Shown: piece by piece, positions 16,543-38,212 of the stretch | Position numbering within the stretch: the first letter of the stretch is position 1 | Layout: every line of letters begins with the position of its first letter | From: a virus | Lineage: Duplodnaviria > Heunggongvirae > Uroviricota > Caudoviricetes | DNA length: 57,747 nt | IMG/VR virus record: IMGVR_UViG_2917393062_000003 | Span: 1 to 57,747 of that record | Strand: one strand, 5' to 3' | The notes under the pieces: generated by a model | What the model was told of the DNA's origin: nothing | Seen by the model: the letters and a program-made list of their open reading frames with translations, nothing else | The model's database searches: none | Position numbers and translations under genes: made by a program

Positions 16543-16902
16543 ATGCGTATAGAGCTTGTTTTGCCTTACCCGCCGACGGTGAACACCTACTGGCGACGTC
16601 GTGGCAGCACATATTTTGTATCAAAAGCCGGTGAGCGTTATCGTCGGGATGTGGCGCTCATTGTTCGCCAGCAGCGACTGAAATTAAACCTGTCCGGAAG
16701 GCTGGCAATAAAAATTATTGCAGAGCCACCGGATAAGCGCCGCCGAGACCTGGACAATATCCTGAAAGCTCCACTGGATGCGCTGACGCATGCGGGACTA
16801 CTCATAGACGACGAGCAGTTTGATGAAATCAATATTGTGCGTGGTCAGCTCGTTCCTGGTGGGCGGCTGGGGATAAAAATCACAGAGCTGGAGTGCGCAT
16901 GA
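16543..16902 (+). CDS. rusA: Holliday junction resolvase RusA
   Basis: 119 aa; DKRRRDLDNILKAPLDALTHAG matches RusA catalytic region. Confidence 0.85.
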   Translation: MRIELVLPYPPTVNTYWRRRGSTYFVSKAGERYRRDVALIVRQQRLKLNLSGRLAIKIIAEPPDKRRRDLDNILKAPLDALTHAGLLIDDEQFDEINIVRGQLVPGGRLGIKITELECA

Positions 16903-17588
16903 ATTACCAGTATTTACAGTTTGTTCGTGAGCAACTCATGATTGCCACCGCCGATTTGAGTGGAGCAACAAAAGGACAGCTTGAGGCCTGGCAGGAGAAT
17001 GCCATGTTTGAAACAGGGCGTTACAGGCGTAAAAAAATCCGGTACCGCGATGAAGTGACCGGAAAAATGATAACGCGGGATAATCCACCAATCCCGGGAA
17101 AACAATCGCTGGCGAAAGGTTCGTCAATTCCTCTGGTAAGTCAGGTTGAGTTTTCGACATCATCATGGCGACGGGCAGTTCTGTCTCTTGAAGAACATCA
17201 TAAAGCCTGGTTGTTGTGGTGTTACAGCGGCAGCATTTGCTGGGAACACCAGATCGCGATAACGCAGTGGGTGTGGCATGAATTTAACGCACAATCCGGT
17301 ACCAGAAAAATTGCAGGGAAAACGCTGGAGCGCCTGAAAAAATTAATCTGGCTGGCGGCACAGGATGTGAAGAGTGAGCTGGCTGGGCGTGAAACTTATG
17401 AATATCAGGAACTGGCATTACTGGCGGGAGTAACAACAAAAAACTGGTCCAAAACATTTACTGGTCACTGGGTTGCAATGAAACATATTTTCCACCGTCT
17501 GGATAGTGAGGCTTTATTGTTTGTGATGAGAACGCGTTCAGAACAAAAGGCGGCATTTTCAAAGCAAAGTGTTGCAAAAGTAGATTAA
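16899..17588 (+). CDS. putative late-gene antiterminator (Q-like), assigned mainly by position
   Basis: about 230 aa immediately after rusA and before a terminator and the lysis genes; no Cys4 zinc finger seen. Confidence 0.45.
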   Translation: MNYQYLQFVREQLMIATADLSGATKGQLEAWQENAMFETGRYRRKKIRYRDEVTGKMITRDNPPIPGKQSLAKGSSIPLVSQVEFSTSSWRRAVLSLEEHHKAWLLWCYSGSICWEHQIAITQWVWHEFNAQSGTRKIAGKTLERLKKLIWLAAQDVKSELAGRETYEYQELALLAGVTTKNWSKTFTGHWVAMKHIFHRLDSEALLFVMRTRSEQKAAFSKQSVAKVD

Positions 17589-17653
17589 AAGGCATATATT
17601 TCGTGCAAATCTGATATTTTGCCGATTTTGTACGCGATGGCAAAGTAAGCAAG

Positions 17654-17677
17654 GCCCGCCGCTGAGCGGGTTTTTTT
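17654..17677 (+). terminator. rho-independent terminator (tR'-like) downstream of Q-like gene
   Basis: gcccgc-cgctga-gcgggt followed by 7 T. Confidence 0.6.
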
Positions 17678-17890
17678 ATGTCTGAAAAACGGCACAGGGC
17701 GTTAAACACGCTGGTGGTTGCGCAGTGAGCGGTTTGAGCAGGCGGTGAGTGAGATAAGAGAAGTTCTGACATGTAAAGCCGTTGGTTGATTAATGCTTAT
17801 TTTTTTATAAGTCTTATTGCAATATATAAGTGTGGGGTGTAAAGTTATTCTCGAAATAATCATGTTTTCTCACGAATCAGAGGGGGGATA

Positions 17891-18586: not shown

Positions 18587-18931
18587 TTCGGTTTTCGTAA
18601 CGATTGCATTTTTCTTATCTGCTTGCCGTTGTTTGTAGCGTGTTTTTGCATGTTGTTTTGTAGTTAACCTTATGGTTGGCTGGATTTTGTTCATCCATAA
18701 AAAAATATCCCTCTCTGATCTTTAAGGTTCGCTTTTGCGGGCCTTTTTTTTTATATCCGCGCCACGCCCGGCGCACATCAAAAACCACAGAGCCTTTCAG
18801 GGGTGAGCTTACGGGATGGTCAGTGTGACTTTCTCTGTGGGCTGGTCACCCCGGGGCCTTTACTGCGCAAATCTGAATAACACTACACAAAAGGCATCTG
18901 CGGGTGCCTTTGACGGGGTGTTGTTTTTTAC

Positions 18932-18953
18932 GGGCCGCTGGTGGCCCTTTTTT
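18932..18953 (+). terminator. intrinsic terminator-like hairpin just upstream of the holin RBS
   Basis: gggcc-gctggt-ggccc followed by 6 T. Confidence 0.45.
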
Positions 18954-21702: not shown

Positions 21703-22185
21703 ATGTCAGGACCCCCGAAAACCCCGCCACGCCTGCATTTGATACGAGGCAACCCCTCAAAGCGCCCCGTTAAAGACCCAAAAAAAACCGCTAAAAAGGA
21801 TGAAAAAGGTCTCCCTAAAATTCCGCAACATTTAGGGTCGCAGGGGAAGTACTGGTTCAGGCGAATGGCGGAAGAACTGAATGCGGAAGGGATCATTTCT
21901 CAGCTTGATGCGCGTGCACTCGAGTTACTGGTGGAAGCCTACACCGAATACCGGCATCACTGCGAAACACTTGATGCTGAGGGTTATACCTACCGCACGG
22001 AAACGCAGAACGGTGATGTGCTGATTAAGGCACACCCGGCTGCTGCGATGAAAGCGGATGCCTGGAAGCGGATCCGGGCGATGCTTGCAGAGTTTGGTAT
22101 GTCACCGGCAAGCCGGGCGAAAGTAAATACCGCCGGATCGGATGATGTTGATCCGCTGGCGGAGCTTTTAAAAGCGAGAGACTGA
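21703..22185 (+). CDS. terminase small subunit
   Basis: 160 aa; paralogous to 36131-36487; directly upstream of terL. Confidence 0.7.
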   Translation: MSGPPKTPPRLHLIRGNPSKRPVKDPKKTAKKDEKGLPKIPQHLGSQGKYWFRRMAEELNAEGIISQLDARALELLVEAYTEYRHHCETLDAEGYTYRTETQNGDVLIKAHPAAAMKADAWKRIRAMLAEFGMSPASRAKVNTAGSDDVDPLAELLKARD

Positions 22186-23270
22186 TGGCAAAAGTGGCTG
22201 ACGGGATCCGCTACGCCGAACGTGTTGTTGCAGGAGAAATTGTCGCTGGCGAATTTGTCCGTCTGGCCTGCCAGCGTTTTCTTGATGATCTGAAGTACGG
22301 CGAAGAGCGGGGGATTTATTTCAGTGAACCCCGTGCGCAGCACATCCTGAATTTCTACAAATTTGTGCCCCATGTAAAAGGGGCGCTGGCAGGCCAGCCC
22401 ATTGAACTGATGGACTGGCATGTATTTATCCTCATTAATATTTTTGGTTTTGTCATTCCGCTGGTCAATGAAGAGACCGGGGAAGTTGTCATGCGCAGCG
22501 ATGGCAGCGGACGTCCGGTGATGGTGCGCCGGTTCCGGACGGCGTACAACGAAGTCGCCCGTAAAAACGCAAAATCAACCCTGTCATCGGGTATCGGCCT
22601 GTATATGACGGGGGCAGATGGTGAAGGCGGTGCTGAGGTGTATTCAGCCGCAACCACGCGTGACCAGGCCAGAATTGTGTTTGAAGACGCCAAAAATATG
22701 GTCAGAAAAGCCCGGTCGACACTCGGGCGGTTGTTTGATTTCAACAAGCTGGCGATTTACCAGGAGCAGAGCGCATCAAAATTTGAACCGCTTTCCTCGG
22801 ATGCAAACAACCTGGACGGTCTGAACATCCACTGCGCCATTATTGATGAGCTGCATGCTCATAAAACCCGTGACGTGTGGGACGTTCTGGAAACGGCAAC
22901 CGGTGCCCGTCTGCAGTCCCTTTTATTTGGCATCACCACGGCTGGCTTTAACAAGGAAGGGATTTGTTACGAGCAACGCGATTACGCCATCAAGGTATTG
23001 CGAGGCTATAACAGCGACGTGGAGGGCGCGGTAAAAGACGACTCCTACTTTGCAATTATTTACACGCTCGATGAGGGAGATGATCCGTTTGATGAAACGG
23101 TCTGGCAGAAAGCGAATCCCGGCCTGGGCATCTGTAAACGCTGGGATGATCTGCGTCGTCTGGCGAAAAAGGCGAAGGAGCAGGTCTCGGCACGGGTGAA
23201 TTTTTTCACGAAGAAAGTAACATCACGCCGTAACAGCAGTGCGGCCTGTCCTGATTTTTTTAGTAACTAA
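22185..23270 (+). pseudogene. terminase large subunit, N-terminal part, interrupted at about 23212 by the inserted element
   Basis: aligns with the first ~315 aa of the intact TerL at 36471-38132, then runs into 19 codons of element DNA and a stop. Confidence 0.8.
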
Positions 23271-23342
23271 ATGAAAGAAAAAGATTTTTTCTTTTTCGTC
23301 GTTTTTGTTTTTTCTGGATGGTTCTGGCTGTTTTCATCATTT

Positions 23343-23363
23343 GTGTATTGCACTGTGTATTGC
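23343..23363. repeat. 21-bp subterminal repeat (tandem TGTGTATTGC units), left copy; candidate integrase arm-type site
   Basis: GTGTATTGCACTGTGTATTGC here and GTGTATTGCGCTGTGTATTGC at 38553-38573, direct orientation. Confidence 0.5.
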
Positions 23364-23383
23364 AAAAACGGGTTATAAATCAC

Positions 23384-24607
23384 ATGGCGCTAAACAAACT
23401 GAGCGATAAAAAACTTCGTTCCCTGCTTGGGCGCAGGAGTGAGAGGCAGGAAACCATCGCTGATGGTAACGGGCTTTCGGTACGGGTCAGTAAATACGGA
23501 TGTGTTAGTTTTGTTTTCTTTTACAGACTGGCGGGAAGGGGAACCGCGCCCATCTGGCTGACACTTGGAAAATATCCTGATCTGAGTCTCAAATCAGCGA
23601 GAGAGATGCGCGATCAGTGTCGAACTTGGCTTGCGGAGGGCAGAGATCCACGGATTCAGATAAAAATTGAACGGGAAGCCACCTTGCAACCTGTTACCGT
23701 TCGTGAGGCACTTGAATACTGGCTTGATAATTATGCAATGGATAAGCGTAGGGGAGCAGAACATATCAGGCAGTGCTTTGGTAAACATATTTATCCGGTG
23801 ATTGGTCATGTACCACTTAGTGATTGCTCTATATCTATGTGGATCAAGTGTTTTGACAAAATAAAAAAAGTAGCACCTGTACAGGCCGGAGCTTTGTTGC
23901 GTATATCAAAACAGGCGCTTAAATTTTGTAGGGTAAGAAAATACGCGATTAGTCATGAAATTGATGATCTTGAGGTCTGTGATGTGGGAAAAAAGTCTGC
24001 GCGAAGAAGCAGGGTTTTAACAGATGATGAAATCAGAGATTTATGGCGAAGTATTAATACTGATTATGACAATCACGAATTATCATATGAAAACCGAATT
24101 ATTTTACGTTTCCTGGTAGTTTTTGGTTGTCGACTGTCAGAAGTATTACTGTCGTCCTGGGTAGAGTGGGATTTTGATAAGAAATTATGGCGCGTTCCCG
24201 CTGATCATAGCAAAAATGGCAGGGAAATAATCAGACCGATTCCTGATGGCATGTTTAACTGGTTAGTTACGTTAAAAAAAATAACAGGTAACAAAGAAAA
24301 TGTGATTGGGTTTGATATGCGTCAGTGTACGGCAAGCGTAACTATCGGTAAGACATGGAAAAGGATGAAACACTCGGAGAAATGGACGGCGCATGATATG
24401 CGAAGAGTGTTTGCCACAAAACTAAGTGATCATGGTTTTGAACATAATGTGGTTGAACAGTTGCTTGGGCACACATTAGGCGGTGTTGCCGGGGTTTATA
24501 ACAGAAGCCAGTATATGGACAGAAAAAAAGAAGCTATGAACTGGTGGTACGACTATCTGAATAAGCAAATTAGTGGTGACAGTAATGATTCAAATAGTTA
24601 CGCGTGA
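23384..24607 (+). CDS. P4-like tyrosine integrase (N-terminal arm-binding-type domain)
   Basis: about 408 aa from MALNKLSDKKLRSL; catalytic motifs RLSEV, HDMRRVFAT, GGVAGVYNRSQY. Confidence 0.85.
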   Translation: MALNKLSDKKLRSLLGRRSERQETIADGNGLSVRVSKYGCVSFVFFYRLAGRGTAPIWLTLGKYPDLSLKSAREMRDQCRTWLAEGRDPRIQIKIEREATLQPVTVREALEYWLDNYAMDKRRGAEHIRQCFGKHIYPVIGHVPLSDCSISMWIKCFDKIKKVAPVQAGALLRISKQALKFCRVRKYAISHEIDDLEVCDVGKKSARRSRVLTDDEIRDLWRSINTDYDNHELSYENRIILRFLVVFGCRLSEVLLSSWVEWDFDKKLWRVPADHSKNGREIIRPIPDGMFNWLVTLKKITGNKENVIGFDMRQCTASVTIGKTWKRMKHSEKWTAHDMRRVFATKLSDHGFEHNVVEQLLGHTLGGVAGVYNRSQYMDRKKEAMNWWYDYLNKQISGDSNDSNSYA

Positions 24608-24806
24608 AGAACTTGAAAATGATAAAACAATCGACAGGATGATTAAGGAAGATGAATGTGCATGGTTAACAGCTCTTGGCAGGAGACACAGAGCATTACT
24701 TGAAAAGGAAGGAAAATTTCCACGTAAAATATGTATTGGCCCACAAACAAAAGTCTGGCGCTTATCTGAGGTGCTGGAATGGGTAAAGGGTGAATGGAAA
24801 CCCTGA
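24585..24806 (+). CDS. AlpA-family regulator
   Basis: EGKFPRKICIGPQTKVWRLSEVLEWV pattern; start ambiguous (24573, 24585 or 24639). Confidence 0.6.
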   Translation: MIQIVTREELENDKTIDRMIKEDECAWLTALGRRHRALLEKEGKFPRKICIGPQTKVWRLSEVLEWVKGEWKP

Positions 24807-24830
24807 ACTAAATTAAATGAGATATAATCA

Positions 24831-24855
24831 ACCCGTCTTTTGGCGGGTTTTTTTA
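24831..24855 (+). terminator. intrinsic terminator-like hairpin abutting the second alpA-like gene
   Basis: acccgtc-tttt-ggcgggt followed by 7 T. Confidence 0.4.
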
Positions 24856-24869
24856 TAGGTGATATTTTT

Positions 24870-25148
24870 ATGCAAAAATTTATTTATCCTACACCCGAAG
24901 AACGCATTCAGATTCTGAAAGATCATGGCGAACCGTATGATCGCCGTATACGCGAACATGAGTGTGCCAATCGTACCGGGCTTTCAAGAAGCAGACGTTG
25001 GGTACTTGAACAGGAGGGAGCATTTCCTGCTCGTGCTCATTTAGGGAAAGTGTCTGTTTCCTGGTTGCTCTCTGATGTGCTCTGGTGGGTTATGCATCCG
25101 CCAGGAGTAAAGGAAGTAAACAGCCCATACAAAAACGCCAATAAGTAA
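24870..25148 (+). CDS. second AlpA-family regulator
   Basis: EQEGAFPARAHLGKVSVSWLLSDVLWWV pattern. Confidence 0.6.
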   Translation: MQKFIYPTPEERIQILKDHGEPYDRRIREHECANRTGLSRSRRWVLEQEGAFPARAHLGKVSVSWLLSDVLWWVMHPPGVKEVNSPYKNANK

Positions 25149-25158
25149 TTACCGACAA

Positions 25159-25186
25159 CCCCGCACCACGCAATGCGGGGTTTTTT
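25159..25186 (+). terminator. rho-independent terminator
   Basis: ccccgca-ccacgcaa-tgcgggg followed by 6 T. Confidence 0.65.
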
Positions 25187-25205
25187 GTATGTGAGGTAGA
25201 AAGTG

Positions 25206-25799
25206 ATGAATAAAAATATTGCCGCGACGGGCAAGGGTGACGCACGTCATATGAAAAAATTCTGTGATATTCGTGATCTGGTCGTTCTGCGCTTTGATAG
25301 TGTGAACGTTCGCGTGGTGTATCTGAACGGCGATCCGTGGTTTGTTGGCGCTGATGTGTGTGCGGCGCTGGAAATTAGCAACGTTACCGATGCTGTTTCA
25401 GTTCTGGATAGCGATGAGGTAATGACCCTAGCTTTAACCGAGGGTCATTCAGGTAAGCGTGGTGGTGCCAGAAGTTGGAATGTTGTATCAGAATCAGGTT
25501 TTTACAAGTTGATCGCCAGAAGTCGCAAAGCTGTTAATCCTAGCACGTTCGCCCATCGTTTCAGTAATTGGGTATTCAGAAATGTGATACCGGGTATCAG
25601 AAAAACGGGGGCTTATGGTATCCCGTGGGGCGCATTACAGGATTTTTCCCGCCGCAAAGAGCAATACCAGATAAGTGCCAGCGAGAAGGGGAGGGAGCTA
25701 CAGGCATGTAAGCGCAAAAAGCGTGAGCTGGAGGAAGAAGAAAAAAGGCTGATACGTGAATACCAGCCTGAGTTTTACTTTGGTGAGCGTATTCAGTAA
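25206..25799 (+). CDS. Bro-N domain protein (antirepressor-like)
   Basis: N-terminal Bro-N pattern FVGADVCAALEISNVTDAVS...FYKLIARS...FAHRFSNWV. Confidence 0.7.
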   Translation: MNKNIAATGKGDARHMKKFCDIRDLVVLRFDSVNVRVVYLNGDPWFVGADVCAALEISNVTDAVSVLDSDEVMTLALTEGHSGKRGGARSWNVVSESGFYKLIARSRKAVNPSTFAHRFSNWVFRNVIPGIRKTGAYGIPWGALQDFSRRKEQYQISASEKGRELQACKRKKRELEEEEKRLIREYQPEFYFGERIQ

Positions 25800-26449
25800 C
25801 CACACGCGGTGTTGATTATACGGTACATCGTGTTGACCGGGAAGCTACCCACCAGCAAGGCAAAATCTTCTGCTAAAAAATGACATATGACCAGTCGTCC
25901 GGAAAGCATGAAATTTTACAAAAATGGAAAATGAAGATTTTTATTGTGCTGGTGGGTAAAAACAAAAAGCGCCCCGTTACCGGAGCGCCATTGCGAACAA
26001 TTAACCTACTGCGCAAAAAATGAATCTGTGCGGGGGGATTATATCAACCGTGGTCGAAATGACCATAGTTGCAGGATAACAGGCAAAACAAAGGCCACCC
26101 GCTACGGTGGCCCCTCGACACAAGCTACACGTTATCCCCAACGCATGAGCATAACCAACAATGCCACATTTACGGCTGGTGGGCAAATCCTGAGCTGTTC
26201 TGTAATTACAGGAACTACGGCATTGTCGCGGTTAGGTTATGCTCAACTTTTTTTCAACTCTATATCGCAAGCACGCCGTAATATATCGCCTTCATTGCTT
26301 CCGCAAAGATTCTTTTTCTCGAAGCATGATTTTAAGATAAAGGCGGCGACAATTAGAACAATCGCACAGAGTGCACAATTTTTAAGTTTTGGCATCTTTT
26401 ACTCCTATGGTTGCCGCCGTGATTCCTCACACCACGGCGCTGATAGTAA

Positions 26450-26629
26450 TTATTCTGATTCTTTGGCCTTGCGGCGCTGGCGGCGTTTGATCTCGCCACG
26501 CATGGCTGTAACGATAAACTGCGCGTCTGTTTCGTTTTCCTCTTTGACCAAATTCATTTCGCTTAAAACTTCTAGAGGGATTCTAGCCGTTTTTTGTTGT
26601 GATTTGTTGTTGGTTGTACCCGTTGGCAT
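26450..26629 (-). CDS. small regulator, possibly ribbon-helix-helix type
   Basis: 59 aa from MPTGTTNNK; very strong SD AAGGAGG; divergent from the rightward operon. Confidence 0.45.
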   Translation of the reverse strand: MPTGTTNNKSQQKTARIPLEVLSEMNLVKEENETDAQFIVTAMRGEIKRRQRRKAKESE

Positions 26630-26691
26630 TACTAGCCTCCTTACTGTTAGGTGGCGTTCAGTATACGTAGAAAAAAAAAATAAAAAAAAGC

Positions 26692-26742
26692 TTGAAGTGC
26701 AAGTCACCTAAAAGTAGCATAATCCTCAAAGGTGACTTGCAC
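26692..26742 (+). promoter_or_regulatory. rightward promoter bracketed by a perfect 13-bp inverted repeat (operator)
   Basis: -35 TTGAAG, 17-nt spacer, -10 TAGCAT; inverted repeat GTGCAAGTCACCT (26697-26709) / AGGTGACTTGCAC (26730-26742); upstream A-tract. Confidence 0.5.
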
Positions 26743-26823
26743 CTTAAAGACAAAGCCCCGCAAGTGTCGTTACCACTCACAGGGCTTCTAACCACCAACG
26801 ATAACGAGAGTATCGAGGTAGCT

Positions 26824-27030
26824 ATGTTAAATCATACCACACACCCGCAAGGGCGGGACTCGCACAACCTGAATAAATATATCTGGCGTTTTATCGCTCT
26901 GAGCACGGCACAACCGCGCGTGATTACCATTGAGGCCACCAGTGAACAGGAAGCCTGTCAGCAATCACCGGCTGGCTGCGTGATGGTATTCGCCGCCCAT
27001 ATTCGTCAGGGGGTGCACCATGTGCAATAA
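26824..27030 (+). CDS. hypothetical small protein (satellite rightward operon gene 1)
   Basis: ATG 26824 with SD GAGG. Confidence 0.4.
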   Translation: MLNHTTHPQGRDSHNLNKYIWRFIALSTAQPRVITIEATSEQEACQQSPAGCVMVFAAHIRQGVHHVQ

Positions 27031-27256
27031 CACCCGTCCGGACTCAGCCGCCGAAGCTATCAGAACGCTAATGCACGCGCTGATTGATATTTCATGCACG
27101 GCAGCAACCGCAGAAAAACACATTACCAGAGAGACGGAATATGCAGGGGCGATAATCCCGCATTCGCTGGCATATGTGCAGCTTAGTGCCGACATGGCAC
27201 TGGATGAGGCAGGCAAAATTCTTACCGCAGATATCCAGGGGGGACGCCATGCATAA
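27020..27256 (+). CDS. hypothetical small protein
   Basis: overlapping, translationally coupled ORF. Confidence 0.4.
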   Translation: MCNNTRPDSAAEAIRTLMHALIDISCTAATAEKHITRETEYAGAIIPHSLAYVQLSADMALDEAGKILTADIQGGRHA

Positions 27257-27461
27257 TCATGAAGCGCACTTACCTGTAGTGCTGAATGTGCCATCAGATT
27301 ATACGGGGCGCGTACTGGTGTATCTGGAAAAAGGCCGGGTTAAATGCCAGTGCCGTTTAATGGAAAACGAATTTATCAGCACTCTTGCGGGATTTTCTGA
27401 AATGCTCACTAAATCTGGTGTTAGTGCAGACCAGTTACGCGGGGGCGATTATGCGAAATAA
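27249..27461 (+). CDS. hypothetical small protein
   Basis: ATG 27249 overlapping upstream stop. Confidence 0.4.
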   Translation: MHNHEAHLPVVLNVPSDYTGRVLVYLEKGRVKCQCRLMENEFISTLAGFSEMLTKSGVSADQLRGGDYAK

Positions 27462-27669
27462 ACGTGATATTGAAGACCTGGCATTTGAAGCCCTGCACTC
27501 TGCGAAAAAGATCAGGGAAGTCGTCAATATGTGGATGAACAGCCTTAGCACCGATGAATCCGATAGCAGAGAAGAAATTCTTATTTCTTTGTTGTTAGAC
27601 CTGGCAAATACACAGGTTTCTCTGACATCTGATATTGAGCTCGCCGCTAAAAAGCTGCCTCTGGAGTAA
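27451..27669 (+). CDS. hypothetical small protein
   Basis: ATG 27451 overlapping upstream stop. Confidence 0.4.
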   Translation: MRNKRDIEDLAFEALHSAKKIREVVNMWMNSLSTDESDSREEILISLLLDLANTQVSLTSDIELAAKKLPLE

Positions 27670-27799
27670 AAAAACATGAAAAAGAAAAAATTCTGGCTTT
27701 ACTGCCAGCGGTCACGCTCGGCCTGAAATCCGCCCCGGTGATATTTTCCGGGATAAATACGGCAGCACGATAACGATTAAAACTGTCGATGATTTTCGT

Positions 27800-27991
27800 G
27801 TGACCTATATCCGCGAAGGTTATGCGCATCCCTGCGTGTCGTCACATATGCGCTTTGACAGGGAGTTCACCTTGGTAAGCAAAGCACCACCAGCAGAATT
27901 AAGCGACATCGACAGAATCATGCGCGTTACAGGAATGGAACGCATTAAGGCAGTACGTGAAATTATTCGTGAACGGGGAAAGGCAAAATGA
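27800..27991 (+). CDS. hypothetical small protein (GTG start)
   Basis: 63-aa ORF ending in ATGA overlap with the replication gene; weak RBS. Confidence 0.25.
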   Translation: MTYIREGYAHPCVSSHMRFDREFTLVSKAPPAELSDIDRIMRVTGMERIKAVREIIRERGKAK

Positions 27992-30111
27992 AGCGCGCAC
28001 CAAACTTAAAGCACCAGCCAGCCGATAAAATGACGGAGGTTATCATCTTTGCGGGTAGTGATGCGTGGAGCCATGCGAAAGAGTGGCAGGAATGGGCAGG
28101 TAAGCATATTGCCGCCGACAATGTGCCGCCTGTCGTTCTGTCAGATGAACACCTGAAAGATATTACCGGTTATCAAATTATTGATGATAGTCGTCAGTGT
28201 GTGCGTGTTTACCGCGCAGGGCACATCACTGAACGTAGCCTTACACAGATCGTCACGTTGCTGGCTGTGGCTGGCGTGAAGACCGTATACGAATACGCGG
28301 GGATAACTGACACCAGCCCGGCGGATTTATCCGACCAGTTGCCTCGCCTCAAAGACGAATACGAGCGCGGGGAAAGTCTGGTGTTGCCCTTAAAGAAAAA
28401 AATCACAGAAAGCCCGGGTGATGATGAATTAAAGCCCCGCGTTGAAAGCCGCGCCGATGGTGTTTTCTGGGTAACGCCAAAAGTGGATAAGCAGTCAGGC
28501 GAAATTATCCGGCCTGAGACGTGGTTATGTTCCCCGCTTGAACTACTGGGAACGGGGACAATCGGTAAAGAGCATTACCGCGTGATGCGCTGGAAAAAAT
28601 TCGCAAATCATGAAGTCATCACAATGGCGGTTCCGTGCGGTGGCATTGGCGACCGTGACGGCTGGCGGCTGCTGAAAGACCACGGACTGAACGTAACAAC
28701 TAACGGCAAAAATAGGGCTATCCTGGCTGACTGGATGCAGTTAAGCGGAAGCCATGAGGAATGGCAGTTAAGCACAACAACGGGCTGGCATTTTGGCGCG
28801 TACATCATGCCGGACGGTTCGGTCATTGGTGATTGCGAAAAGCCAGTCCTGTTTACCGGAAAAACGGCTGCTGTTAATGGCTATTCCGTGGCAGGAACGG
28901 CGGAGGGTTGGCGCGATACCGTGGCGCGGCTGGCTGGTGGTAATCCGTCCATGATGCTGGGTGTGGCGGTATCGTTATCCGCACCATTAATCGGGCTGGT
29001 GGGTGCTGACGGCTTCGGGGTACATCTTTTCGAACAGTCATCGGCAGGGAAAACCACCACACAGAACATCGCATCCAGTTTATGGGGAGAGCCGGACGCA
29101 CAACGGCTGACCTGGTACGGCACGGCGTTAGGTATCGCCAACGAGGCCGAAGCACATAATGACGGGCTGTTACCCCTGGATGAAATAGGTCAGGCCGGAA
29201 ACGCGCGGGAGGTGTCCACGTCAGCCTATACGCTGTTTAACGGTTCCGGGAAATTACAGGGGGCAAAGGACGGCGGCAACAGGGAGATAAAACACTGGCG
29301 AACGGTGGCAATCAGTACCGGAGAAATGGACGTTGAAACATTCCTCAAAACGGAAGGGATAAAAGTCAAGGCGGGGCAGCTTGTCCGCCTGCTTAACGTG
29401 CCAATGGAAAAAGCCACACAATTTCACGAATACAGCACCGGAAAGGCACACGCAGACGCGTTAAAGGATGCCTGGACAGAAAATCACGGGGCGGCGGGGC
29501 GTGAATGGGTTAAATGGTTGGCAGACCATCAGCAGGAGGCAAAGGACACGGTAAGGGCATGCCGTGAACGGTGGCGCAACCTGATACCGGAGAGCTACGG
29601 CGAGCAGGTACACCGCGTGGGTGAGCGTTTCGCCATACTGGAGGCCGCGCTTGTGCTTTCCGGTCATGTTACTGGCTGGGATGTTCAGGCGTGCCGCGAT
29701 GCCATACAGCATAATTTTTATGCCTGGGTGAAGGAGTTCGGCACGGGTAACAGGGAGTTTAAACAGATGGTTGAACAGGCAGAGGCTTTTTTAGCGTCGT
29801 TCGGATTCAGCAGATACCTTCCGTGGCCCAACACCGACGAGCGTGATTTACCGATTAAAGAGCTTGCCGGATACAGAAAGGGGAGTATCAGAAACGAAGA
29901 TGACGAGTTCCGTTTTTACACGTTCCCGCATGTATTTGAGGGTGAGATAGCACAGGGATTTAATCCGTCTCACTTTGCCCGCGCGTTGAGTGCTGCCGGA
30001 ATGCTGGAAGCGGGTAACGATCGCCGTTACAAGAAAAAGGCGCTCGGCAAAATTGGGGGGAAGCAGCATGTTTTTTACGTGCTGATGTTCCAGCCTGAGG
30101 CAGAAGATTAA
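27988..30111 (+). CDS. satellite replication protein with P-loop NTPase (DUF927-like primase/helicase class)
   Basis: 707 aa; Walker A SSAGKTT; iterons immediately downstream; family name from memory. Confidence 0.6.
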   Translation: MKRAPNLKHQPADKMTEVIIFAGSDAWSHAKEWQEWAGKHIAADNVPPVVLSDEHLKDITGYQIIDDSRQCVRVYRAGHITERSLTQIVTLLAVAGVKTVYEYAGITDTSPADLSDQLPRLKDEYERGESLVLPLKKKITESPGDDELKPRVESRADGVFWVTPKVDKQSGEIIRPETWLCSPLELLGTGTIGKEHYRVMRWKKFANHEVITMAVPCGGIGDRDGWRLLKDHGLNVTTNGKNRAILADWMQLSGSHEEWQLSTTTGWHFGAYIMPDGSVIGDCEKPVLFTGKTAAVNGYSVAGTAEGWRDTVARLAGGNPSMMLGVAVSLSAPLIGLVGADGFGVHLFEQSSAGKTTTQNIASSLWGEPDAQRLTWYGTALGIANEAEAHNDGLLPLDEIGQAGNAREVSTSAYTLFNGSGKLQGAKDGGNREIKHWRTVAISTGEMDVETFLKTEGIKVKAGQLVRLLNVPMEKATQFHEYSTGKAHADALKDAWTENHGAAGREWVKWLADHQQEAKDTVRACRERWRNLIPESYGEQVHRVGERFAILEAALVLSGHVTGWDVQACRDAIQHNFYAWVKEFGTGNREFKQMVEQAEAFLASFGFSRYLPWPNTDERDLPIKELAGYRKGSIRNEDDEFRFYTFPHVFEGEIAQGFNPSHFARALSAAGMLEAGNDRRYKKKALGKIGGKQHVFYVLMFQPEAED

Positions 30112-30132
30112 CCCCTGTGTGAGGTGAAAAGT

Positions 30133-30257
30133 TGCGGGTTATGCGGGTTATCCTGTGTATAAGTGCATTAACTGTATGAATAAAAAGGAAATCAATAACC
30201 CGCACGTAACCCGCAAAACGGCAGTTATAACCCGCAAAAGTGCGATTATAACCCGCA
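30133..30257. repeat. iteron cluster (TAACCCGCA units in both orientations), candidate replication origin
   Basis: two inverted-orientation units at 30133-30150 and four direct units between 30196 and 30257. Confidence 0.6.
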
Positions 30258-30320
30258 GAATTTCACCGTAAGGGTGTAAACAAGCGTAACAATCAACGTT
30301 AAAACCGGAGAACAGACAGC

Positions 30321-30743
30321 ATGACAGCACAGATAGCAGCTTACGGGCGGCTGGTGGCTGACCCGCAGTTAAAGACCACCAGCAAAGGGACACAAATGGC
30401 GATGGCGAGTATGGCAGTTCCCCTGCCGTGCAGCCAGGCAGATGACGGAACGGCGACGATGTGGTTATCCGTCCTGGCGTTTGGCAGACAGGCCGACGCA
30501 CTGGCAAAACACCACAAAGGCGAACTGGTGAGCGTGGCGGGTAACATGCAGGTAAGCCAGTGGACAGGTCAGAACGGCGAAATGCGGCAGGGTTGGCAGG
30601 TCATCGCAGACAGCGTAATCAGTGCGCGAACGGCGCGACCGGGCGGCAAAAAAGGCCAGCAGGGCCAGGCTACTGACGCACTGAACAGGGCAAAACAACA
30701 GGCGGGGAATGATGATCCGTACGGGGACGGGATACCGTTTTAA
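30321..30743 (+). CDS. SSB-like OB-fold protein with acidic C-terminal DGIPF tip
   Basis: 140 aa; Gly/Gln-rich linker and C-terminal DDPYGDGIPF resembling the SSB DDDIPF tail. Confidence 0.55.
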   Translation: MTAQIAAYGRLVADPQLKTTSKGTQMAMASMAVPLPCSQADDGTATMWLSVLAFGRQADALAKHHKGELVSVAGNMQVSQWTGQNGEMRQGWQVIADSVISARTARPGGKKGQQGQATDALNRAKQQAGNDDPYGDGIPF

Positions 30744-30758
30744 GCAGTGAGGTACAGC

Positions 30759-31040
30759 ATGATTAAAGACAGCAAAGCGGAAGAACTGGAGGCTAAAGGG
30801 CTGTACCGGAGAGCGGCGGCGCGTTGGGCTGATGTTATGTGGCTGGTGAGCACTGACAAGGAGCGCGAACAGGTGGCAAAGCGTCGCGCGGAATGTATCC
30901 GTAAGGCAGCGCGCCAACCAGTCATACCGGATAATTTCGGAATACTGAAAGAGGCCATAAACCGCACACATACCGGGATGGGCTTACAGAAACCTGGCGG
31001 TGAGATGTTCAGGAACTACCCGAAAAAAAAGGATAATTGA
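30759..31040 (+). CDS. PerC-like regulator (tentative)
   Basis: MIKDSKAEELEAKGLYRRAAARWADVM; family assignment from memory. Confidence 0.4.
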   Translation: MIKDSKAEELEAKGLYRRAAARWADVMWLVSTDKEREQVAKRRAECIRKAARQPVIPDNFGILKEAINRTHTGMGLQKPGGEMFRNYPKKKDN

Positions 31041-31085
31041 TAACGGTTGTTAACTGTTTCTGGTATCGTGGCAGCAGGAGGAAAC

Positions 31086-31334
31086 ATGCCAGTGACATTT
31101 GAAGAAGTCCAGCAACATAAAAAGCTTCATGATTTTGATGATCTGGAAACCACGACAGTAAAAAAATATCGCCGGCTGCTTTCTTCCGATGCGTTATTTT
31201 TTGTGGATCATCATGATTTTCTGCGTAGCTCACTGACCGGGGAAATTTTCGCAACCAACCGTGAGCAGGTGGAAGCGATGATCGAATATCTGTGGAAAAT
31301 AAGGCGCAGAATGCGTGATCCCGTGAAACGGTAG
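31086..31334 (+). CDS. hypothetical protein
   Basis: ATG 31086 with SD AGGAGG. Confidence 0.45.
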   Translation: MPVTFEEVQQHKKLHDFDDLETTTVKKYRRLLSSDALFFVDHHDFLRSSLTGEIFATNREQVEAMIEYLWKIRRRMRDPVKR

Positions 31335-31343
31335 AATAATAAT

Positions 31344-31372
31344 GGCCTGGTATTTTCCAGGCCATTTTTTTT
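31344..31372. terminator. rho-independent terminator between convergent genes
   Basis: ggcctgg-tatttt-ccaggcc followed by 8 T. Confidence 0.65.
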
Positions 31373-31844
31373 AGAAGTCGATCTCTGTATCGCGATTAAA
31401 TTCATCGCTAAGGTAAAGTGCTTCGCTTGGGCATTTTCCGTTTTCCAGTAATGTTTCCCAGAAATCTTTATCGAAACACCCCTCAAGATACAGATAGCGG
31501 CAGATGTGAAGTAAATCACTTCGTGTCCATCCGTGCATGCTGCTACTTGTTACACCATATTCACTTTCTAGTTTATAGAATGTGAGCGCCTCCCGGTCGT
31601 GCCAGGCTTTGCACAGACGATCGTATATCTTTTTAGCTTTGTTTTTAGATGTGCCGAAAAACTCTTCGTAAATTTCATGTGGGCGAGCAGGAATACTTCC
31701 GTCGCCATCCTGCAAGAAAGGATAAACATCTGCCTCCCAGGCATACACGTAAGAATCGCTGAACTCATCATAGTGTTTACCAAGGTGGAGAATCTGCAAT
31801 CGTTGCTGAATGAACATTGCTTTTTTCAGTTCATTTTCTGACAT
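31371..31844 (-). CDS. opposite-strand cargo protein of unknown function (candidate accessory or defence gene)
   Basis: 157 aa; only minus-strand gene in the satellite core; noticeably lower GC than neighbours; own upstream region. Confidence 0.55.
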   Translation of the reverse strand: MSENELKKAMFIQQRLQILHLGKHYDEFSDSYVYAWEADVYPFLQDGDGSIPARPHEIYEEFFGTSKNKAKKIYDRLCKAWHDREALTFYKLESEYGVTSSSMHGWTRSDLLHICRYLYLEGCFDKDFWETLLENGKCPSEALYLSDEFNRDTEIDF

Positions 31845-32138
31845 AGTTCGTTCCTCCTGATTGACGAGCAGAAAATGTACGGAACAGCTTATTTATTTTT
31901 TCAGGTTTTGTAAATTATTTGTTCGTGGTTGTTCCAGGTTGTTCGGTGATTCTGGCTGATGTTTACATACTGATTTTTATGTATATGTTGGCGTGTGGCA
32001 CTCAGACGTGAGCCGCCACAATGCCGCCTGACCCCCTGCGCGATGCCGGGTTGATCTGCGAGATGCCGGGAGTGTCGGGCGGCGCTCCCTCCGTGTTGGT
32101 TTCACGTCCTGAATCTTAACCAATACGAGAAAACCTTC

Positions 32139-33284
32139 ATGAAGAAATTAATCGAACTCCGCCAGCAAAAAACCGCCCTGAAAAACCAGATGCGATCCCT
32201 GCTGGAAAAAGCCGACAGTGAAAACCGCAGCCTGAACGATGACGAGGGCAAACAGTTTGATGAACTGCGTGCAAAAGCCGATTCCCTCGACACAGAAATT
32301 TCCCGTCTTGAAGCTGTTGCGGATGAAGAACGTAACCAGCCAGGTGTTTCCGTCGAAGAGAAAATCACCAAAGACGAACTGCGCTCTTACATTCTGACCG
32401 GGGAAACCCGCAACCTGTCCGGCAGTGTCCCGGCTGATGGTGGTTATACGGTTATCCCGGAACTGAACAGAGAAATTATGCGTCAGCTTTCTGATGAATC
32501 GGTGATGCGTAAAATCTGTACCGTTAAAACCATTCACAGCAATGAATTTAAGCAACTGGTTTCTGCCGGGGGTGCGGTCGTTGAACACGGCGAAGAAGGT
32601 GCGGCACGTAACCAGACGGCAACACCAAAACTGAATGAAGTCAGTATCCGCCTGTATCCGATCTACGCTTACCCGAAAACCACTCAGGAAATTATCGATT
32701 TTTCCGAAGTCGATATTATGGGCTGGTTATCTTCTGAAATTGGCGACACTTTCGTTGATACCGAAGAAATGGATCTGGTTTCTGGTGATGGCGAGAAAAA
32801 AGCTAAAGGTTTCCTGGCTTTTCCGCGCACTGCGGATAACGACAAAACCCGTCCTTTCGGTACGCTCCAGACGAAAAAAGTTACTGGCAGTCTCAGCGCC
32901 GACATGCTGATTGACCTGAAATTTACGCTGCGCAATAAGTACCGCAAAAAAGCTGTATGGGTGATGAACTCAAATACAGCCGCCTCCGCACAAAAACTGA
33001 AAAATGCCACTGGTGATTACATCTGGCGCGATCGTTTACAGGCTGGTGATCCTGATTCTCTGCTGGGGCTTCCGGTTGAATATCTGGAATTTATGCCGGA
33101 CGGTGTGATTGCAGTAGGTGACTTTAAGCGCGGTTATTTCATCGTTGACCATGAAACCGGTACGCGTACCCGTCCGGATTTCAGCGAACCCGGATTCATT
33201 AACATCTATACCCAGAAATATCTGGGCGGTGGTGTGGTGGATTCGAACGCCATCAAGATTCTGGAAATTCAGGCTGGCAAGTAA
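32139..33284 (+). CDS. HK97-family major capsid protein (satellite)
   Basis: 381 aa; paralogous in architecture to prophage MCP at 41463-42686. Confidence 0.8.
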   Translation: MKKLIELRQQKTALKNQMRSLLEKADSENRSLNDDEGKQFDELRAKADSLDTEISRLEAVADEERNQPGVSVEEKITKDELRSYILTGETRNLSGSVPADGGYTVIPELNREIMRQLSDESVMRKICTVKTIHSNEFKQLVSAGGAVVEHGEEGAARNQTATPKLNEVSIRLYPIYAYPKTTQEIIDFSEVDIMGWLSSEIGDTFVDTEEMDLVSGDGEKKAKGFLAFPRTADNDKTRPFGTLQTKKVTGSLSADMLIDLKFTLRNKYRKKAVWVMNSNTAASAQKLKNATGDYIWRDRLQAGDPDSLLGLPVEYLEFMPDGVIAVGDFKRGYFIVDHETGTRTRPDFSEPGFINIYTQKYLGGGVVDSNAIKILEIQAGK

Positions 33285-33333
33285 TGAGCAAAGGGGGCTT
33301 CGGCCTCCTTTTTCAGCTTTATGGAGTACACCG

Positions 33334-33894
33334 ATGAAAAATACCGATTTTGAAATCCGTACATCTGAACTGACCGCCAGTGATAAAAAACTGGTGGGTT
33401 ATGCCGTTCGCTGGAACAGCCTTTCAGAAATTATCTGGGACGAATTCCGCGAACAGTTTACGCCGGGGGCTTTTGCTGACTATCTGGCGGCGGGTAATGA
33501 TGTGCGCTGCCTGTATGAGCATGACTATACCCGACTGCTGGGGCGCACCAAATCCGGAACACTGGTACTGACTGAGGACAACACCGGGCTACGTTTTGAA
33601 CTGACACCGCCTGATACCCAGCTTGGAAAAGATGTGCTTACGCTGGTGGAGCGTGGCGACATTACAGGAATGAGCTTTGGCTTTCGCGCATTATGCGAAG
33701 AATGGAATATCGCGCAAAAACCGTATCTGCGCACTGTTACCGCCGCAGAACTTCGTGAAATCACGATAACGTCAATGCCTGCTTATCCCGAATCTGGCGT
33801 GGAGATTGCCCGCCGTTCGTTGTTTGCACAGCACCCTGAATTACGCCCGACAGGAAATAATCGTCATCGCTGGGCTGAACTGGCGGGGTTGTGA
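33334..33894 (+). CDS. HK97-family prohead protease (satellite)
   Basis: about 186 aa from MKNTDFEIR with SD GGAG; paralog of 40798-41448. Confidence 0.75.
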   Translation: MKNTDFEIRTSELTASDKKLVGYAVRWNSLSEIIWDEFREQFTPGAFADYLAAGNDVRCLYEHDYTRLLGRTKSGTLVLTEDNTGLRFELTPPDTQLGKDVLTLVERGDITGMSFGFRALCEEWNIAQKPYLRTVTAAELREITITSMPAYPESGVEIARRSLFAQHPELRPTGNNRHRWAELAGL

Positions 33895-33895
33895 T

Positions 33896-35110
33896 ATGTG
33901 GTGGCCTTTTAGTCGTAAAAAAAGCGATCTGCGTAACCTGTCCATTGATGATTTTCTGGCGCTGTCCGGCGTACCGAATACCGGATCCGGAGAATATGTT
34001 TCTGCCGGGACGGCTGAATCATTGCCTGCTGTGATGAACGCGGTTTCTGTCATCGCTGAGGCGGTGGCCACGATGCCGTGTTATCTGTATCTGGTACGTA
34101 ATGACAAGGGCAGGGAGGCGCGGGAATGGCTGGACAGTCACCCGGTCGATATTCTGCTGAATGAGCAGCCTAATTCGTGCCAGACACCTTACCAGTTTAA
34201 ACGCACAATGATGCGTCACTGCCTGCTGAACGGTAACGCCTATGCGGTTATTGAGTGGGGGCGGGACGGTCAGCCAAAATCACTTCATCCTTATGCGCCG
34301 GGTTGTGTTGTACCGGAACGCACTGGCGCACACAAATACCGCTATACCATCACCGAACCCTATACAGGAACGGTGCGCACGTATTTACAGGAAGAAGTCC
34401 TGCATCTCCGCTATGCCTCGGATGATGGCTTTCTGGGACGTTCCCCCGTCACGATTTGCCGTGAGGCGCTGGGGCTTGGCCTTGCTCAACAGCGTCACGG
34501 AGCCAGCATTATGAAAGATGGCATGATGGCGGCAGGGGTTATTACGTCAGGCGAATGGCTGGACGGCGTGAAAGGTAAACAGGCATTAGACGCCCTGGAA
34601 CGCTACAAGGGGGCGAAAAATGCCGGAAAAACGCCAATCCTTGAAGGGGGCATGGATTACAAGCAACTGGGGATGAGTAACCAGGATGCGGAATGGCTGG
34701 CCTCCCGTCGCTTCTCCATTGAAGACATCGCCCGGATGTTCAACGTATCGCCTATTTTTCTGCAGGAATACAGCAACAGCACCTACAGCAATTTCAGCGA
34801 GGCAAGCCGCGCGTTTCTGACCATGACAATGCGCCCATGGCTGGCGAACTTCGAACAGCAAATTAAGGCCGCTTTGCTGGTGGCTTCTCCCGTACCTGGT
34901 ACCCGTTATCTGGTTGAGTTTGATTCAGCCGATTTATTACGCGCCACCCCTACCGAACGTTACGCCACGTATGAGAAAGGGATTAAGAACGGGATCATGA
35001 ATCCGAACGAAGCCCGCGAACGTGAGGGGATGCCGCCGCGTGAAGGTGGCGACGAATTCAGCCAGGCATGGAAGCAGACGGTGGAAATTAAAGGTGAAAA
35101 AGATGAGTGA
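33896..35110 (+). CDS. portal protein (satellite)
   Basis: about 404 aa from MWWPFSRKK; paralog of prophage portal 39579-40820. Confidence 0.75.
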   Translation: MWWPFSRKKSDLRNLSIDDFLALSGVPNTGSGEYVSAGTAESLPAVMNAVSVIAEAVATMPCYLYLVRNDKGREAREWLDSHPVDILLNEQPNSCQTPYQFKRTMMRHCLLNGNAYAVIEWGRDGQPKSLHPYAPGCVVPERTGAHKYRYTITEPYTGTVRTYLQEEVLHLRYASDDGFLGRSPVTICREALGLGLAQQRHGASIMKDGMMAAGVITSGEWLDGVKGKQALDALERYKGAKNAGKTPILEGGMDYKQLGMSNQDAEWLASRRFSIEDIARMFNVSPIFLQEYSNSTYSNFSEASRAFLTMTMRPWLANFEQQIKAALLVASPVPGTRYLVEFDSADLLRATPTERYATYEKGIKNGIMNPNEAREREGMPPREGGDEFSQAWKQTVEIKGEKDE

Positions 35111-35402
35111 AGAAAAAATTACACCTGATGAGGTCAGGGCACATCTTCGCCTTGATAACTTCTACGATGAAGGCGAACTTCTGAAAATGTATACCGATGC
35201 GGCGCTGGAAGCCTGCCAGAAGCATATCGGGAAACGTTTTGAAGACGGGCTGGAATTTACCCCGGCAATACGTGTTGGTTGCCTGATGTACATTGCTTTC
35301 CTGTACGAGAACAGGGAAGCGGTTTCACCTGTGGAGCAGTCTGAACTGCCTATGGCTATTTCTGCGCTCTGGTCGGTTTATCGTGATGTAGGGGTGTACT
35401 GA
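35103..35402 (+). CDS. head-tail connector (gp6-like) protein (satellite)
   Basis: 99 aa; HLRLDNFYDEGELLK pattern shared with prophage 42733-43056. Confidence 0.65.
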   Translation: MSEEKITPDEVRAHLRLDNFYDEGELLKMYTDAALEACQKHIGKRFEDGLEFTPAIRVGCLMYIAFLYENREAVSPVEQSELPMAISALWSVYRDVGVY

Positions 35403-35842
35403 TGCCGTGGCAACCATTAAGGCGATGCACTGAGCCGGGCTGTAATAAGCGCGTGAAGTCCGGCAAGTGCGAAGATCACAGGCGGGCTGCATGGCGTGCA
35501 GAGGATGCCAGACGGGGACACCGCCGCGCGCGCGGGTATTCCCGACAGTGGGACAAATACCGCGCCCTGTACCTGAGCAAAAACCCGTTATGCGTGCGTT
35601 GTCTGGCTAAGGGGATTTATACGCCAGCTCTTGTGGTGGATCACATCATTCCCATCAATGGCGGCGGTGATGTTCTCTTCTGGCCTGAGTGGAATCACCA
35701 GGCATTGTGCCAGACGTGCCACAACCGTAAGACGACACGGGAAGATCCAGCCACGAAAGCGAACCGTAAGGCGGGCATGTATCGCGAGCAGGAAGAACGG
35801 GCGGCACATCGTAACGACTGGATGTATGGCGATGATGACTGA
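35402..35842 (+). CDS. HNH endonuclease (satellite, terminase-associated)
   Basis: 146 aa; Cys-rich, VDHIIPINGGG...CQTCHNRKT motif. Confidence 0.8.
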   Translation: MPWQPLRRCTEPGCNKRVKSGKCEDHRRAAWRAEDARRGHRRARGYSRQWDKYRALYLSKNPLCVRCLAKGIYTPALVVDHIIPINGGGDVLFWPEWNHQALCQTCHNRKTTREDPATKANRKAGMYREQEERAAHRNDWMYGDDD

Positions 35843-36011
35843 ACAGGAGCAAAACAGGCTGATACGTGGACTGATAAGGCAGCGTGACACATGGAAGGCA
35901 CAGGAGACAGGGCACAAAGCCAACAGGACAGGGCGCACAGAACGCACCACAGCGAAGCGATTAACCGACCGTGACCGCGAGGTCATGGAATGTTTTCGCA
36001 ATCGCTGGTGA
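35826..36011 (+). CDS. hypothetical small basic protein
   Basis: 61-aa ORF overlapping HNH stop. Confidence 0.25.
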   Translation: MAMMTEQEQNRLIRGLIRQRDTWKAQETGHKANRTGRTERTTAKRLTDRDREVMECFRNRW

Positions 36012-36130
36012 GGCCGTCAGAGGGGGTGGGGGAGGTTTTCAGGACAAAACCGTCCCTGCCGGACACCGACCGCCTCCTCAAATTTTTGTGCACGGAAATT
36101 TTTTTGAAAATAATTGGGCGAAAAAAGAAC

Positions 36131-36487
36131 ATGGCAAGACCACCAAAAGCCCCCGCTTACCTGGATGAAATCGCGGTCAGGCAGTGGAAGGAAAAATCGC
36201 GCCAGCTTTCCGGGCGGGAAGACCTTACCCCCGCCGACTGGAGCAATCTGGAACTGTATTGCGTTAACTACTCCATATACCGCAAAGCCGTCGAAGACCT
36301 TGCGACGCGCGGCTTCAGCATTGTTAACAGTCAGGGCAGCGAGAGCAGAAACCCCGCCCTGAGCGCAAAGGCTGACGCGGAAAGAATAATGATCAAAATG
36401 GCTTCTTTGCTGGGTTTTGACCCGGTAAGCCGCCGCAGAAATCCACCGGAAACAGAGGAAGAGGACGAGCTTGACCGCCTGGCATGA
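36131..36487 (+). CDS. terminase small subunit (satellite)
   Basis: start MARPPKAPAYLDEIAVRQW; paralog of 21703-22185. Confidence 0.65.
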   Translation: MARPPKAPAYLDEIAVRQWKEKSRQLSGREDLTPADWSNLELYCVNYSIYRKAVEDLATRGFSIVNSQGSESRNPALSAKADAERIMIKMASLLGFDPVSRRRNPPETEEEDELDRLA

Positions 36488-38132: not shown

Positions 38133-38212
38133 CGGAATGGATGAGAGAGGACAATGCTCATTTAATGGAATAAATTTTCAGTATTACCGGTACCCACTTT
38201 CAGGGATGTTTT

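Follow-up and report, generated by a model that had tools for sequence, protein, structure and literature searches.

How can the regulator of a satellite be expressed when a transcription terminator stands directly before its start codon? The question is raised by the junction of two alpA genes in a stretch of viral DNA (hereafter the window, i.e. all 57,747 nucleotides of the IMG/VR record IMGVR_UViG_2917393062_000003). AlpA of Gram-negative PICIs is a master activator that activates its own gene and is itself turned on by the helper phage; the inducer had not been identified by 2018 (PMC6092414). In the portions of the literature available to us, no answer was found as to how a helper switches on this regulator in Gram-negative satellites. 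The second of the two genes in the window, alpA2, is free-standing and is separated from alpA1 by a hairpin and T-run, here called T1. T1 is very probably a real terminator maintained by selection. The main route to alpA2 would be read-through by helper RNA polymerase modified by the antiterminator Q, a reading to which we assign a probability of roughly 0.4.

The island and its helper prophage

Together with the integrase gene, alpA1, T1 and alpA2 make up the left end of a capsid-forming PICI of ~15.4 kb (23212-38654) that interrupts the terL gene of a helper prophage (Table 1). Joining the two terL fragments at TCACGAA gives an uninterrupted ORF of 585 aa. The left copy of a doubled motif begins 134 bp past the centre of the attL core, and the right copy ends ~77 bp before that of attR. 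Next after bro is ylcI, which is encoded on the minus strand, and then come an icd-like gene and the genes for a DUF927 primase, SSB and ProQ. These are followed by genes for capsid, protease, portal, connector, HNH, TerS and TerL proteins; the island has no tail or lysis genes. A strong bidirectional terminator (31341-31366; 10-bp stem, T-run on the plus strand) lies ahead of the capsid operon of the island, which starts at ~32139, and represents a third barrier for co-oriented transcription.

The embedded configuration is already known, since HE-PICIs have been published (Tommasini, Mageeney and Williams 2023, PMC10111431). Judged from its sequence, the island is a member of this class: it is inserted in a late gene with which it is co-oriented, its predicted excision restores that gene, and it carries the doubled motif. 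The predicted domain architecture of its integrase is likewise consistent with the HE-PICI integrase clade. The co-oriented terL 5' fragment is present in all 20 further copies that were fetched. The Salmonella lineage described below is inserted in a gpA-type terL. A relative from E. coli O157:H7 strain 3-5-1 (L002; NZ_CP038416, 1877987-1886048) lies in a truncated prophage terL of the lambda A / DUF1441-Nu1 type. Complete E. coli genomes lack the island type found on the E. coli contig L005, where only ~20 nt of its target remain.

The second terminator of the region, T2, stands before bro. T2 and the first ~25 nt of bro (window 25157-25230, where the query ends) recur at ~90% identity in over 140 E. 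coli genomes, O157:H7 included; the counterpart in L002 occupies positions 3992-4062. T2 has the appearance of a mosaic junction where exchangeable modules meet.

Table 1. Features of the helper late region and of the ends of the island (window coordinates)
Feature	Position	Strand	Basis or remark
Helper antiterminator Q gene	16893-17588	+	PF06323 Phage_antiter_Q, E 4.4e-94
pR'-like promoter TTGCAA-17-TATATT (17572-17600), then tR'-like terminator (17651-17674 + T7)	17572-17680	+	Consensus-level match
Helper prophage terL, 5' fragment	22185-23211	+	TerL_ATPase and start of TerL_nuclease; RefSeq pseudogene
attL identity block TCACGAA, 7 bp	23205-23211	.	Matching attR copy 38648-38654
Doubled arm motif TGTGTATTGC x2	23342-23364	+	Second doubled copy 38552-38574
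Island tyrosine integrase gene (int)	23384-24607	+	Arm-DNA-bind_3 and Phage_integrase
alpA1, AlpA family	24585-24806	+	PF05930, E 2e-9; overlaps int 3' end by 23 nt
Perfect TATAAT, candidate -10	24823-24828	+	1 nt 5' of the hairpin; without -35 and without TG extension
T1, predicted intrinsic terminator: hairpin 24830-24849 and U-tract	24830-24856	+	Fold, consensus scan, conservation
Shine-Dalgarno (SD) AGGTGA of alpA2	24857-24862	+	Sequence; 7 nt before ATG; GGAG at the equivalent place in relatives
alpA2, free-standing AlpA paralog, 92 aa	24870-25148	+	PF05930, E 5.6e-10
T2, second terminator: hairpin 25157-25182 and T-run	25157-25188	+	-17.3 kcal/mol, z -3.2; ~15 nt before bro start
BRO-N domain gene (bro)	25206-25799	+	PF02498, E 1.9e-16
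attR identity block and helper terL 3' fragment	38648-39385	+	Annotation; terL joining

T1, its conservation and the genes that it separates

The T1 hairpin (AACCCGTCTTTTGGCGGGTT, 24830-24849) consists of the arms AACCCGTC and GGCGGGTT around a TTTT loop. Positions 24830-24837 pair with 24842-24849 to form 8 pairs (5 G-C, 1 G.U and 2 A-U). The T-run extends from 24848 to 24854 and comprises 7 T, two of them inside the stem; an A and a T come next. The calculated RNA fold has a free energy of -12.7 kcal/mol versus -3.5 +/- 1.8 in 200 dinucleotide shuffles, none of which was as stable (0/200; z -5.19). A consensus terminator scan of positions 23500-26000 retrieved 7 sites, T1 being listed on the plus strand, versus 2.1 +/- 1.7 expected. 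Indeed, T1 displays the features by which intrinsic terminators are recognised: a G+C-rich stem of 5-14 bp, a loop of 3-8 nt, a stable fold and a U-tract. It sits on the sense strand, 23 nt past the alpA1 stop codon, and is unidirectional, as the minus-strand version of the hairpin is not followed by a T-run. The ATG of alpA2 (24870-24872) is separated by 15 nt from the end of the T-run. A preliminary description of this DNA had reported the hairpin and T-run with a gap of 14 nt, and had remarked that a promoter could not fit after the hairpin. Apart from the one nucleotide both points hold, since a PWM scan for sigma-70 promoters disclosed nothing usable between T-run and SD in any lineage, nor any promoter at a conserved upstream position.

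The junction was compared in seven independent lineages, namely the window, Salmonella (L003/L004), the metagenomic or SRA contigs L029, L031, L032 and L034, and E. coli (L005). All seven share the same order: alpA1 stop codon, A+T-rich spacer, ACCCG(C/T)-loop-GCGGGT, 6-7 T, SD and ATG. The spacer between the alpA1 stop and the hairpin measures 22-38 nt and cannot be aligned among lineages. The loop varies in sequence and in length (4-7 nt; in L005, 11 nt separate the core arms and two extra pairs form). The SD of the relatives is usually ATGGAG, and their ATG lies 14-20 nt past the T-run. Eleven of the 12 stem bases are invariant and so is the T-run, amid neutral sites that are saturated: third positions are invariant in only 2 of the 43 codons whose amino acid is invariant in the seven lineages. 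This argues strongly for purifying selection on the RNA hairpin and its U-tract. The sole stem change is found in the window, where T replaces C and a G-C pair becomes a G.U pair, which is a mismatch at the DNA level; that pairing is kept in this way argues for a role of the stem at the RNA level. Double compensatory changes do not occur in the T1 stem among the seven lineages, and the support is one of conservation, not covariation. Stem pairs were tabulated by hand, since MAFFT misregistered two of the rows.

The same holds at close range. T1 is invariant in 20 near-identical copies, where polymorphisms are confined to the spacer, and identity over the module is at least 98% across 36 E. coli genomes. 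A scan of genome contigs for further lineages yielded one locus, in Erwinia, with an inserted IS; metagenome and viral scans returned near-identical copies only. On the strength of this conservation, T1 is very probably a real terminator under selection, termination as such being predicted.

IS elements have been inserted in this short interval more than once. In the E. coli lineage, an IS200/IS605-family element encoding a Y1 transposase lies exactly between the T-run of T1 and the SD of alpA2 (L005 ~1660-2370; also L006-L008). In Erwinia tracheiphila, another element of this family directly precedes the SD of alpA2 (L009 ~3450-3990). The T-run that follows a terminator may be a hot spot for IS insertion.

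By itself, T1 is an ordinary intrinsic terminator, and placement of a terminator against an SD is a generic arrangement in phages. The pattern ACCCGC-N4-8-GCGGGTTTTTT-N0-3-ATGGAG has at least 120 matches in unrelated viral contigs of IMG/VR (loci L035-L154), before many different genes. The 120 that were listed, with each of the ~40 distinct variants inspected, stand just 5' of an ATG (GTG in two variants), and none of these listed matches adjoins an AlpA, Bro or Int homolog. Because the layout is so common in phage DNA, the finding of T1 is a modest one. What is new here is the conserved position of a terminator between the tandem AlpA paralogs of a known satellite class, the HE-PICIs.

Both paralogs match PF05930 over the whole 51-residue domain (37.5 bits for AlpA1 and 39.4 for AlpA2; gathering cutoff 21), while neither has a match in NCBIfam. 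AlpA1 has 73 aa and is 44% identical to AlpA2 over 57 aa. In a PDB sequence search (E <= 1), the sole match other than hemagglutinins was 8c3t, an AlpA family phage regulatory protein (E 0.026). E. coli PICIs typically carry one alpA (PMC11773190). The presence of tandem paralogs suggests split roles, with AlpA1, linked to the integrase, as a likely excisionase and AlpA2 as a regulator. Owing to its tight linkage to the integrase, AlpA1 is probably a recombination directionality factor. The int and alpA1 genes are separate yet overlapping in the window (23384-24806) and in L032. One uninterrupted ORF of ~475 aa spans Int and AlpA1 in L003 (2949-4382, Salmonella) and L005 (184-1608, E. coli). 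This ORF may represent a naturally occurring fusion of integrase and excisionase; AlpA1 could still be made separately from an internal Met at the joint.

The AlpA protein of Pseudomonas, an antiterminator that works on a promoter-proximal terminator (PMC7969949, PMC9371919), was considered as a precedent and rejected. It is a 21Q-like protein of ~150 aa and eight helices, in which an N-terminal segment forms a ring and an HTH lies at the C-terminus (PMC9371919), and it is unrelated to the PF05930 proteins of 73 and 92 aa encoded in the window. The common name is a coincidence.

Possible routes to alpA2

The abutment of terminator and gene would be an annotation artefact if the start of alpA2 were mis-set or the gene unreal. 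An in-frame TTG at 24840, within the hairpin, would indeed lengthen the ORF to 102 aa, but the extension, which runs through the hairpin and T-run, is unconserved. The same initiator Met and the N-terminus M-x-K-F-I-Y-P-T-P are found in 8 of 8 clusters of AlpA2 homologs (66-99% identity), and a properly spaced SD precedes the start in each of the seven lineages. AlpA2 aligns with phrog_2790 at full length, from residue 2 to residue 92 (E 2e-34), and RefSeq PGAP has chosen the same ATG. The start at 24870 is thus almost certainly correct, and the chance of an artefact is negligible. Attenuator-type control would require an alternative RNA fold, a leader peptide or a ligand that governs formation of the hairpin. 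Apart from a chance-level match to Trp_leader (E 0.97; 21 bits versus a gathering score of 41), all that speaks for it is the placement of a terminator directly before a regulator gene. However, the stem has a pair probability of at least 0.98 in every context, be it with 31-357 nt of upstream RNA in the window or with 76-186 nt in five diverged relatives (L029 being limited by its contig). A leader peptide or leader ORF was not found ahead of T1, the sequence of the spacer is unconserved, and Rfam returned two chance-level matches only for positions 22000-28500 (E <= 1), with no leader, riboswitch, C4 or isrK (P4 CI-type) RNA. Nor can a terminating ribosome reach the hairpin, since the alpA1 stop lies 22-38 nt away, at a distance that varies. 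As no alternative RNA fold is seen, we hold with good confidence that T1 is not an attenuator; a structure of this kind appears very improbable. Both suggestions, a mis-set start and an attenuator, had been made in the preliminary description and are contradicted by these observations. It is also highly improbable that the inverted repeat ACCCG(C/T)...GCGGGT is a protein-binding DNA palindrome, for instance for AlpA or for the arm domain of Int, in place of an RNA terminator. The sequence of the stem itself is invariant over the lineages, beyond what pairing demands, as expected of a binding site. However, the spacing of the half-sites is not (4 to 7 nt, and 11 nt in L005), the T-run is invariant and present on one strand only, and the T.G mismatch in the DNA of the window is a legal G.U pair in RNA. 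Moreover, the arm motif of the island (Table 1) differs in sequence from the repeat.

Lambda-type Q makes RNA polymerase resistant to intrinsic terminators over many kilobases, and in the Q-pR'-tR' layout only polymerase that Q has made terminator-resistant expresses the late genes. The helper prophage has this layout: Q, a pR'-like promoter and a tR'-like terminator, the latter two recognised at the consensus level only, lie ~7 kb upstream of T1, on the same strand and in one direction with it. Two more strong plus-strand terminators (18724-18745 and 18932-18947) are located ahead of the lysis genes. In an annotated relative (L001), four tRNA genes are found between Q and the holin gene. T1 and the helper tR' have the 3' arm and T-run GCGGGTTTTTTTAT in common. 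Save for these 14 nt, the island contains no copy of the helper pR'/Q-binding region, so that any effect of Q on the island would be exerted in cis only.

We propose that T1 would close the int-alpA1 recombination unit and insulate alpA2 from it. In the resting lysogen, it would stop the int/alpA1 transcripts as well as stray transcription from upstream, thereby keeping alpA2 silent and, past T2, bro as well. In the late phase, Q-modified helper polymerase coming from pR' would cross terL', int, alpA1, T1, alpA2 and T2, and this read-through would couple activation of the satellite to late transcription of the helper. Read-through had already been invoked for alpA2 in the preliminary description. 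That part of the claim is plausible in view of the co-oriented embedding in a late operon, while the attenuator and the mis-set start that accompanied it are not sustained. HE-PICIs are co-oriented with the late genes of their helpers, and it has been proposed that late transcription enters the satellite, which excises late, after composite replication (PMC10111431). Q read-through agrees with both this proposal and the late excision. On the other hand, EcCIEDL933, a related cf-PICI, is reported to be induced in trans, also by plasmid-borne AlpA alone (10.1101/2022.09.08.507074; 10.1101/2025.02.11.637232). Read-through in cis is therefore not the sole route in the cf-PICI family. Another observation that speaks against Q read-through is an enrichment of -10-like hexamers 5' of the hairpin, which favours a promoter at this place.

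Such a promoter is the main rival to Q read-through. It would be activator-dependent and would overlap T1, with the TATAAT of Table 1 as its -10 and a start ~7 nt later, in the 5' arm. Its transcripts would escape T1, because a start inside the 5' arm leaves the hairpin incomplete, and T1 would still stop transcription arriving from upstream. Activation could come from an AlpA protein, as AlpA of EcCICFT073 autoactivates, or from a helper factor. Both autoactivation of alpA and helper-dependent activation of alpA promoters have been published (PMC6092414, PMC11773190), and induction in trans would be explained. CATAAT (L005) and TACACT (L031) occupy the same place as TATAAT in the window. Hexamers with at least 5 of 6 matches, including A2 and T6, occur in the spacer (window 24807-24829 and its equivalents) in 5 of the 7 lineages versus 1.39 expected (P 0.0014), in a test that was post hoc, used mononucleotide shuffles and drew on related lineages. 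However, neither a -35 nor an extended -10 is present, and the highest composite scores are low and fall at unconserved positions. The distance from hexamer to hairpin is also inconsistent. It is 1-2 nt in three lineages, of which two pass the 5-of-6 test (TACACT of L031 matches 4/6), and 10-13 nt in the other four, of which three pass (GTAAAT of L003 matches 4/6). In these four, the transcript would carry the whole hairpin and so terminate. An overlapping promoter is a tentative possibility.

With a -10-like element 10-13 nt upstream, transcripts of those four lineages would begin just 5' of T1 and end there. By analogy with pR'-tR', spacer, hairpin and T-run might then be a promoter-proximal terminator cassette, which transcripts would pass only if a factor loaded at that promoter rendered the polymerase terminator-resistant. 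One of the small AlpA proteins of PF05930, or else a protein of the helper, would be a candidate for this factor. If this were true, the AlpA-family 'activators' of Gram-negative satellites would be antiterminators, which would account for the switching on of alpA by the helper; we regard it as quite unlikely. As the second rival to Q read-through, T1 might be a passive, partial terminator inside a single int-alpA1-alpA2 operon, where it would set a fixed high-to-low ratio and stabilise 3' ends, regulated antitermination playing no part. Intrinsic terminators seldom reach 100% efficiency. A GC hairpin and T-run followed by the SD and ATG of the next gene recur very frequently in phages, as noted above (at least 120 matches in IMG/VR), and the T1-like matches listed there do not lie beside AlpA, Bro or Int homologs. 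However, T1 bears the marks of a strong terminator (-12.7 kcal/mol, a tetraloop and a G-C-rich stem base by 7 U), constitutive leak would ill suit a master activator that is subject to positive feedback (PMC6092414), and the embedded, co-oriented site makes an encounter with Q-modified polymerase unavoidable. The passive role seems rather unlikely.

Q read-through remains the leading reading for the expression of alpA2, and a plausible one. The locus offers a testable idea for the helper-embedded subclass, in which a strong terminator would silence the free-standing AlpA until late read-through. Its interest is modest and lies chiefly in the fact that a model of Q-gated induction becomes directly testable.

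Comparison with known satellites and late control systems

The closest likeness is to the HE-PICIs (PMC10111431). As in that class, the island lies in a lambdoid late gene, terL, with which it is co-oriented and which excision restores. The int-AlpA zone is followed by Bro, replication and late zones, and a doubled arm motif flanks att. Fourteen late-gene sites have been described for HE-PICIs, including the class A:Terminase_1 (PMC10111431). In their attP, the doubled motif is located ~81 bp upstream and ~132 bp downstream of the centre (PMC10111431). The distances in the island, 134 and ~77 bp from the core centres, match these values, although the reference point used in that paper may differ. 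The integration zone of HE-PICIs is described as an integrase and AlpA (PMC10111431), whereas the window has two tandem AlpA paralogs with a conserved terminator between them. In a term search of PMC10111431, antitermination did not come up, and a terminator came up twice, neither time in connection with the int/alpA zone. A literature search combining PICI, alpA and antitermination retrieved nothing.

EcCIEDL933, the prototype of the cf-PICIs (10.1101/2022.09.08.507074), resembles the island in its genes: int, alpA, a primase and the gene set from capsid to TerL, with tail and lysis genes lacking. In the parts of the cf-PICI papers available, attachment sites are described as chromosomal. The O157:H7 relative L002 has T2 and the 5' end of bro in common with the window. 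It differs in having a single alpA, unrelated to the paralogs of the window (E 0.03; no match), and a terminator of the T2 type only.

As summarised for satellite P4, its late leftward operon contains vis (an AlpA homolog), eta (of the Bro network) and a cI immunity that acts by premature termination (PMC10111431). The CI RNA pairs with seqA, and translational coupling links eta to the alpA homolog upstream of it (PMC10111431). To that extent P4 and the window are alike: a gene of the AlpA family precedes one of the Bro network, and termination is a control point of the satellite. They appear to differ in that Rfam finds no C4 or isrK RNA in the window, where hairpin terminators separate the genes and coupling is not seen.

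In lambda-type late control by pR', tR' and Q, a terminator stands before the genes that are reached by Q-modified polymerase. The helper in the window likewise has Q together with pR'-like and tR'-like elements. Unlike tR', T1 is located 7 kb further downstream, inside another mobile element. The pair of AlpA genes, for its part, recalls EcCIMP1, which has two AlpA-family genes, the second and distant copy acting as an excisionase (PMC11773190). A division between a master regulator and an excisionase-like protein is presumed for the two paralogs of the window too. Unlike those of EcCIMP1, they form a co-oriented tandem, and the 63 nt that separate them contain a terminator.
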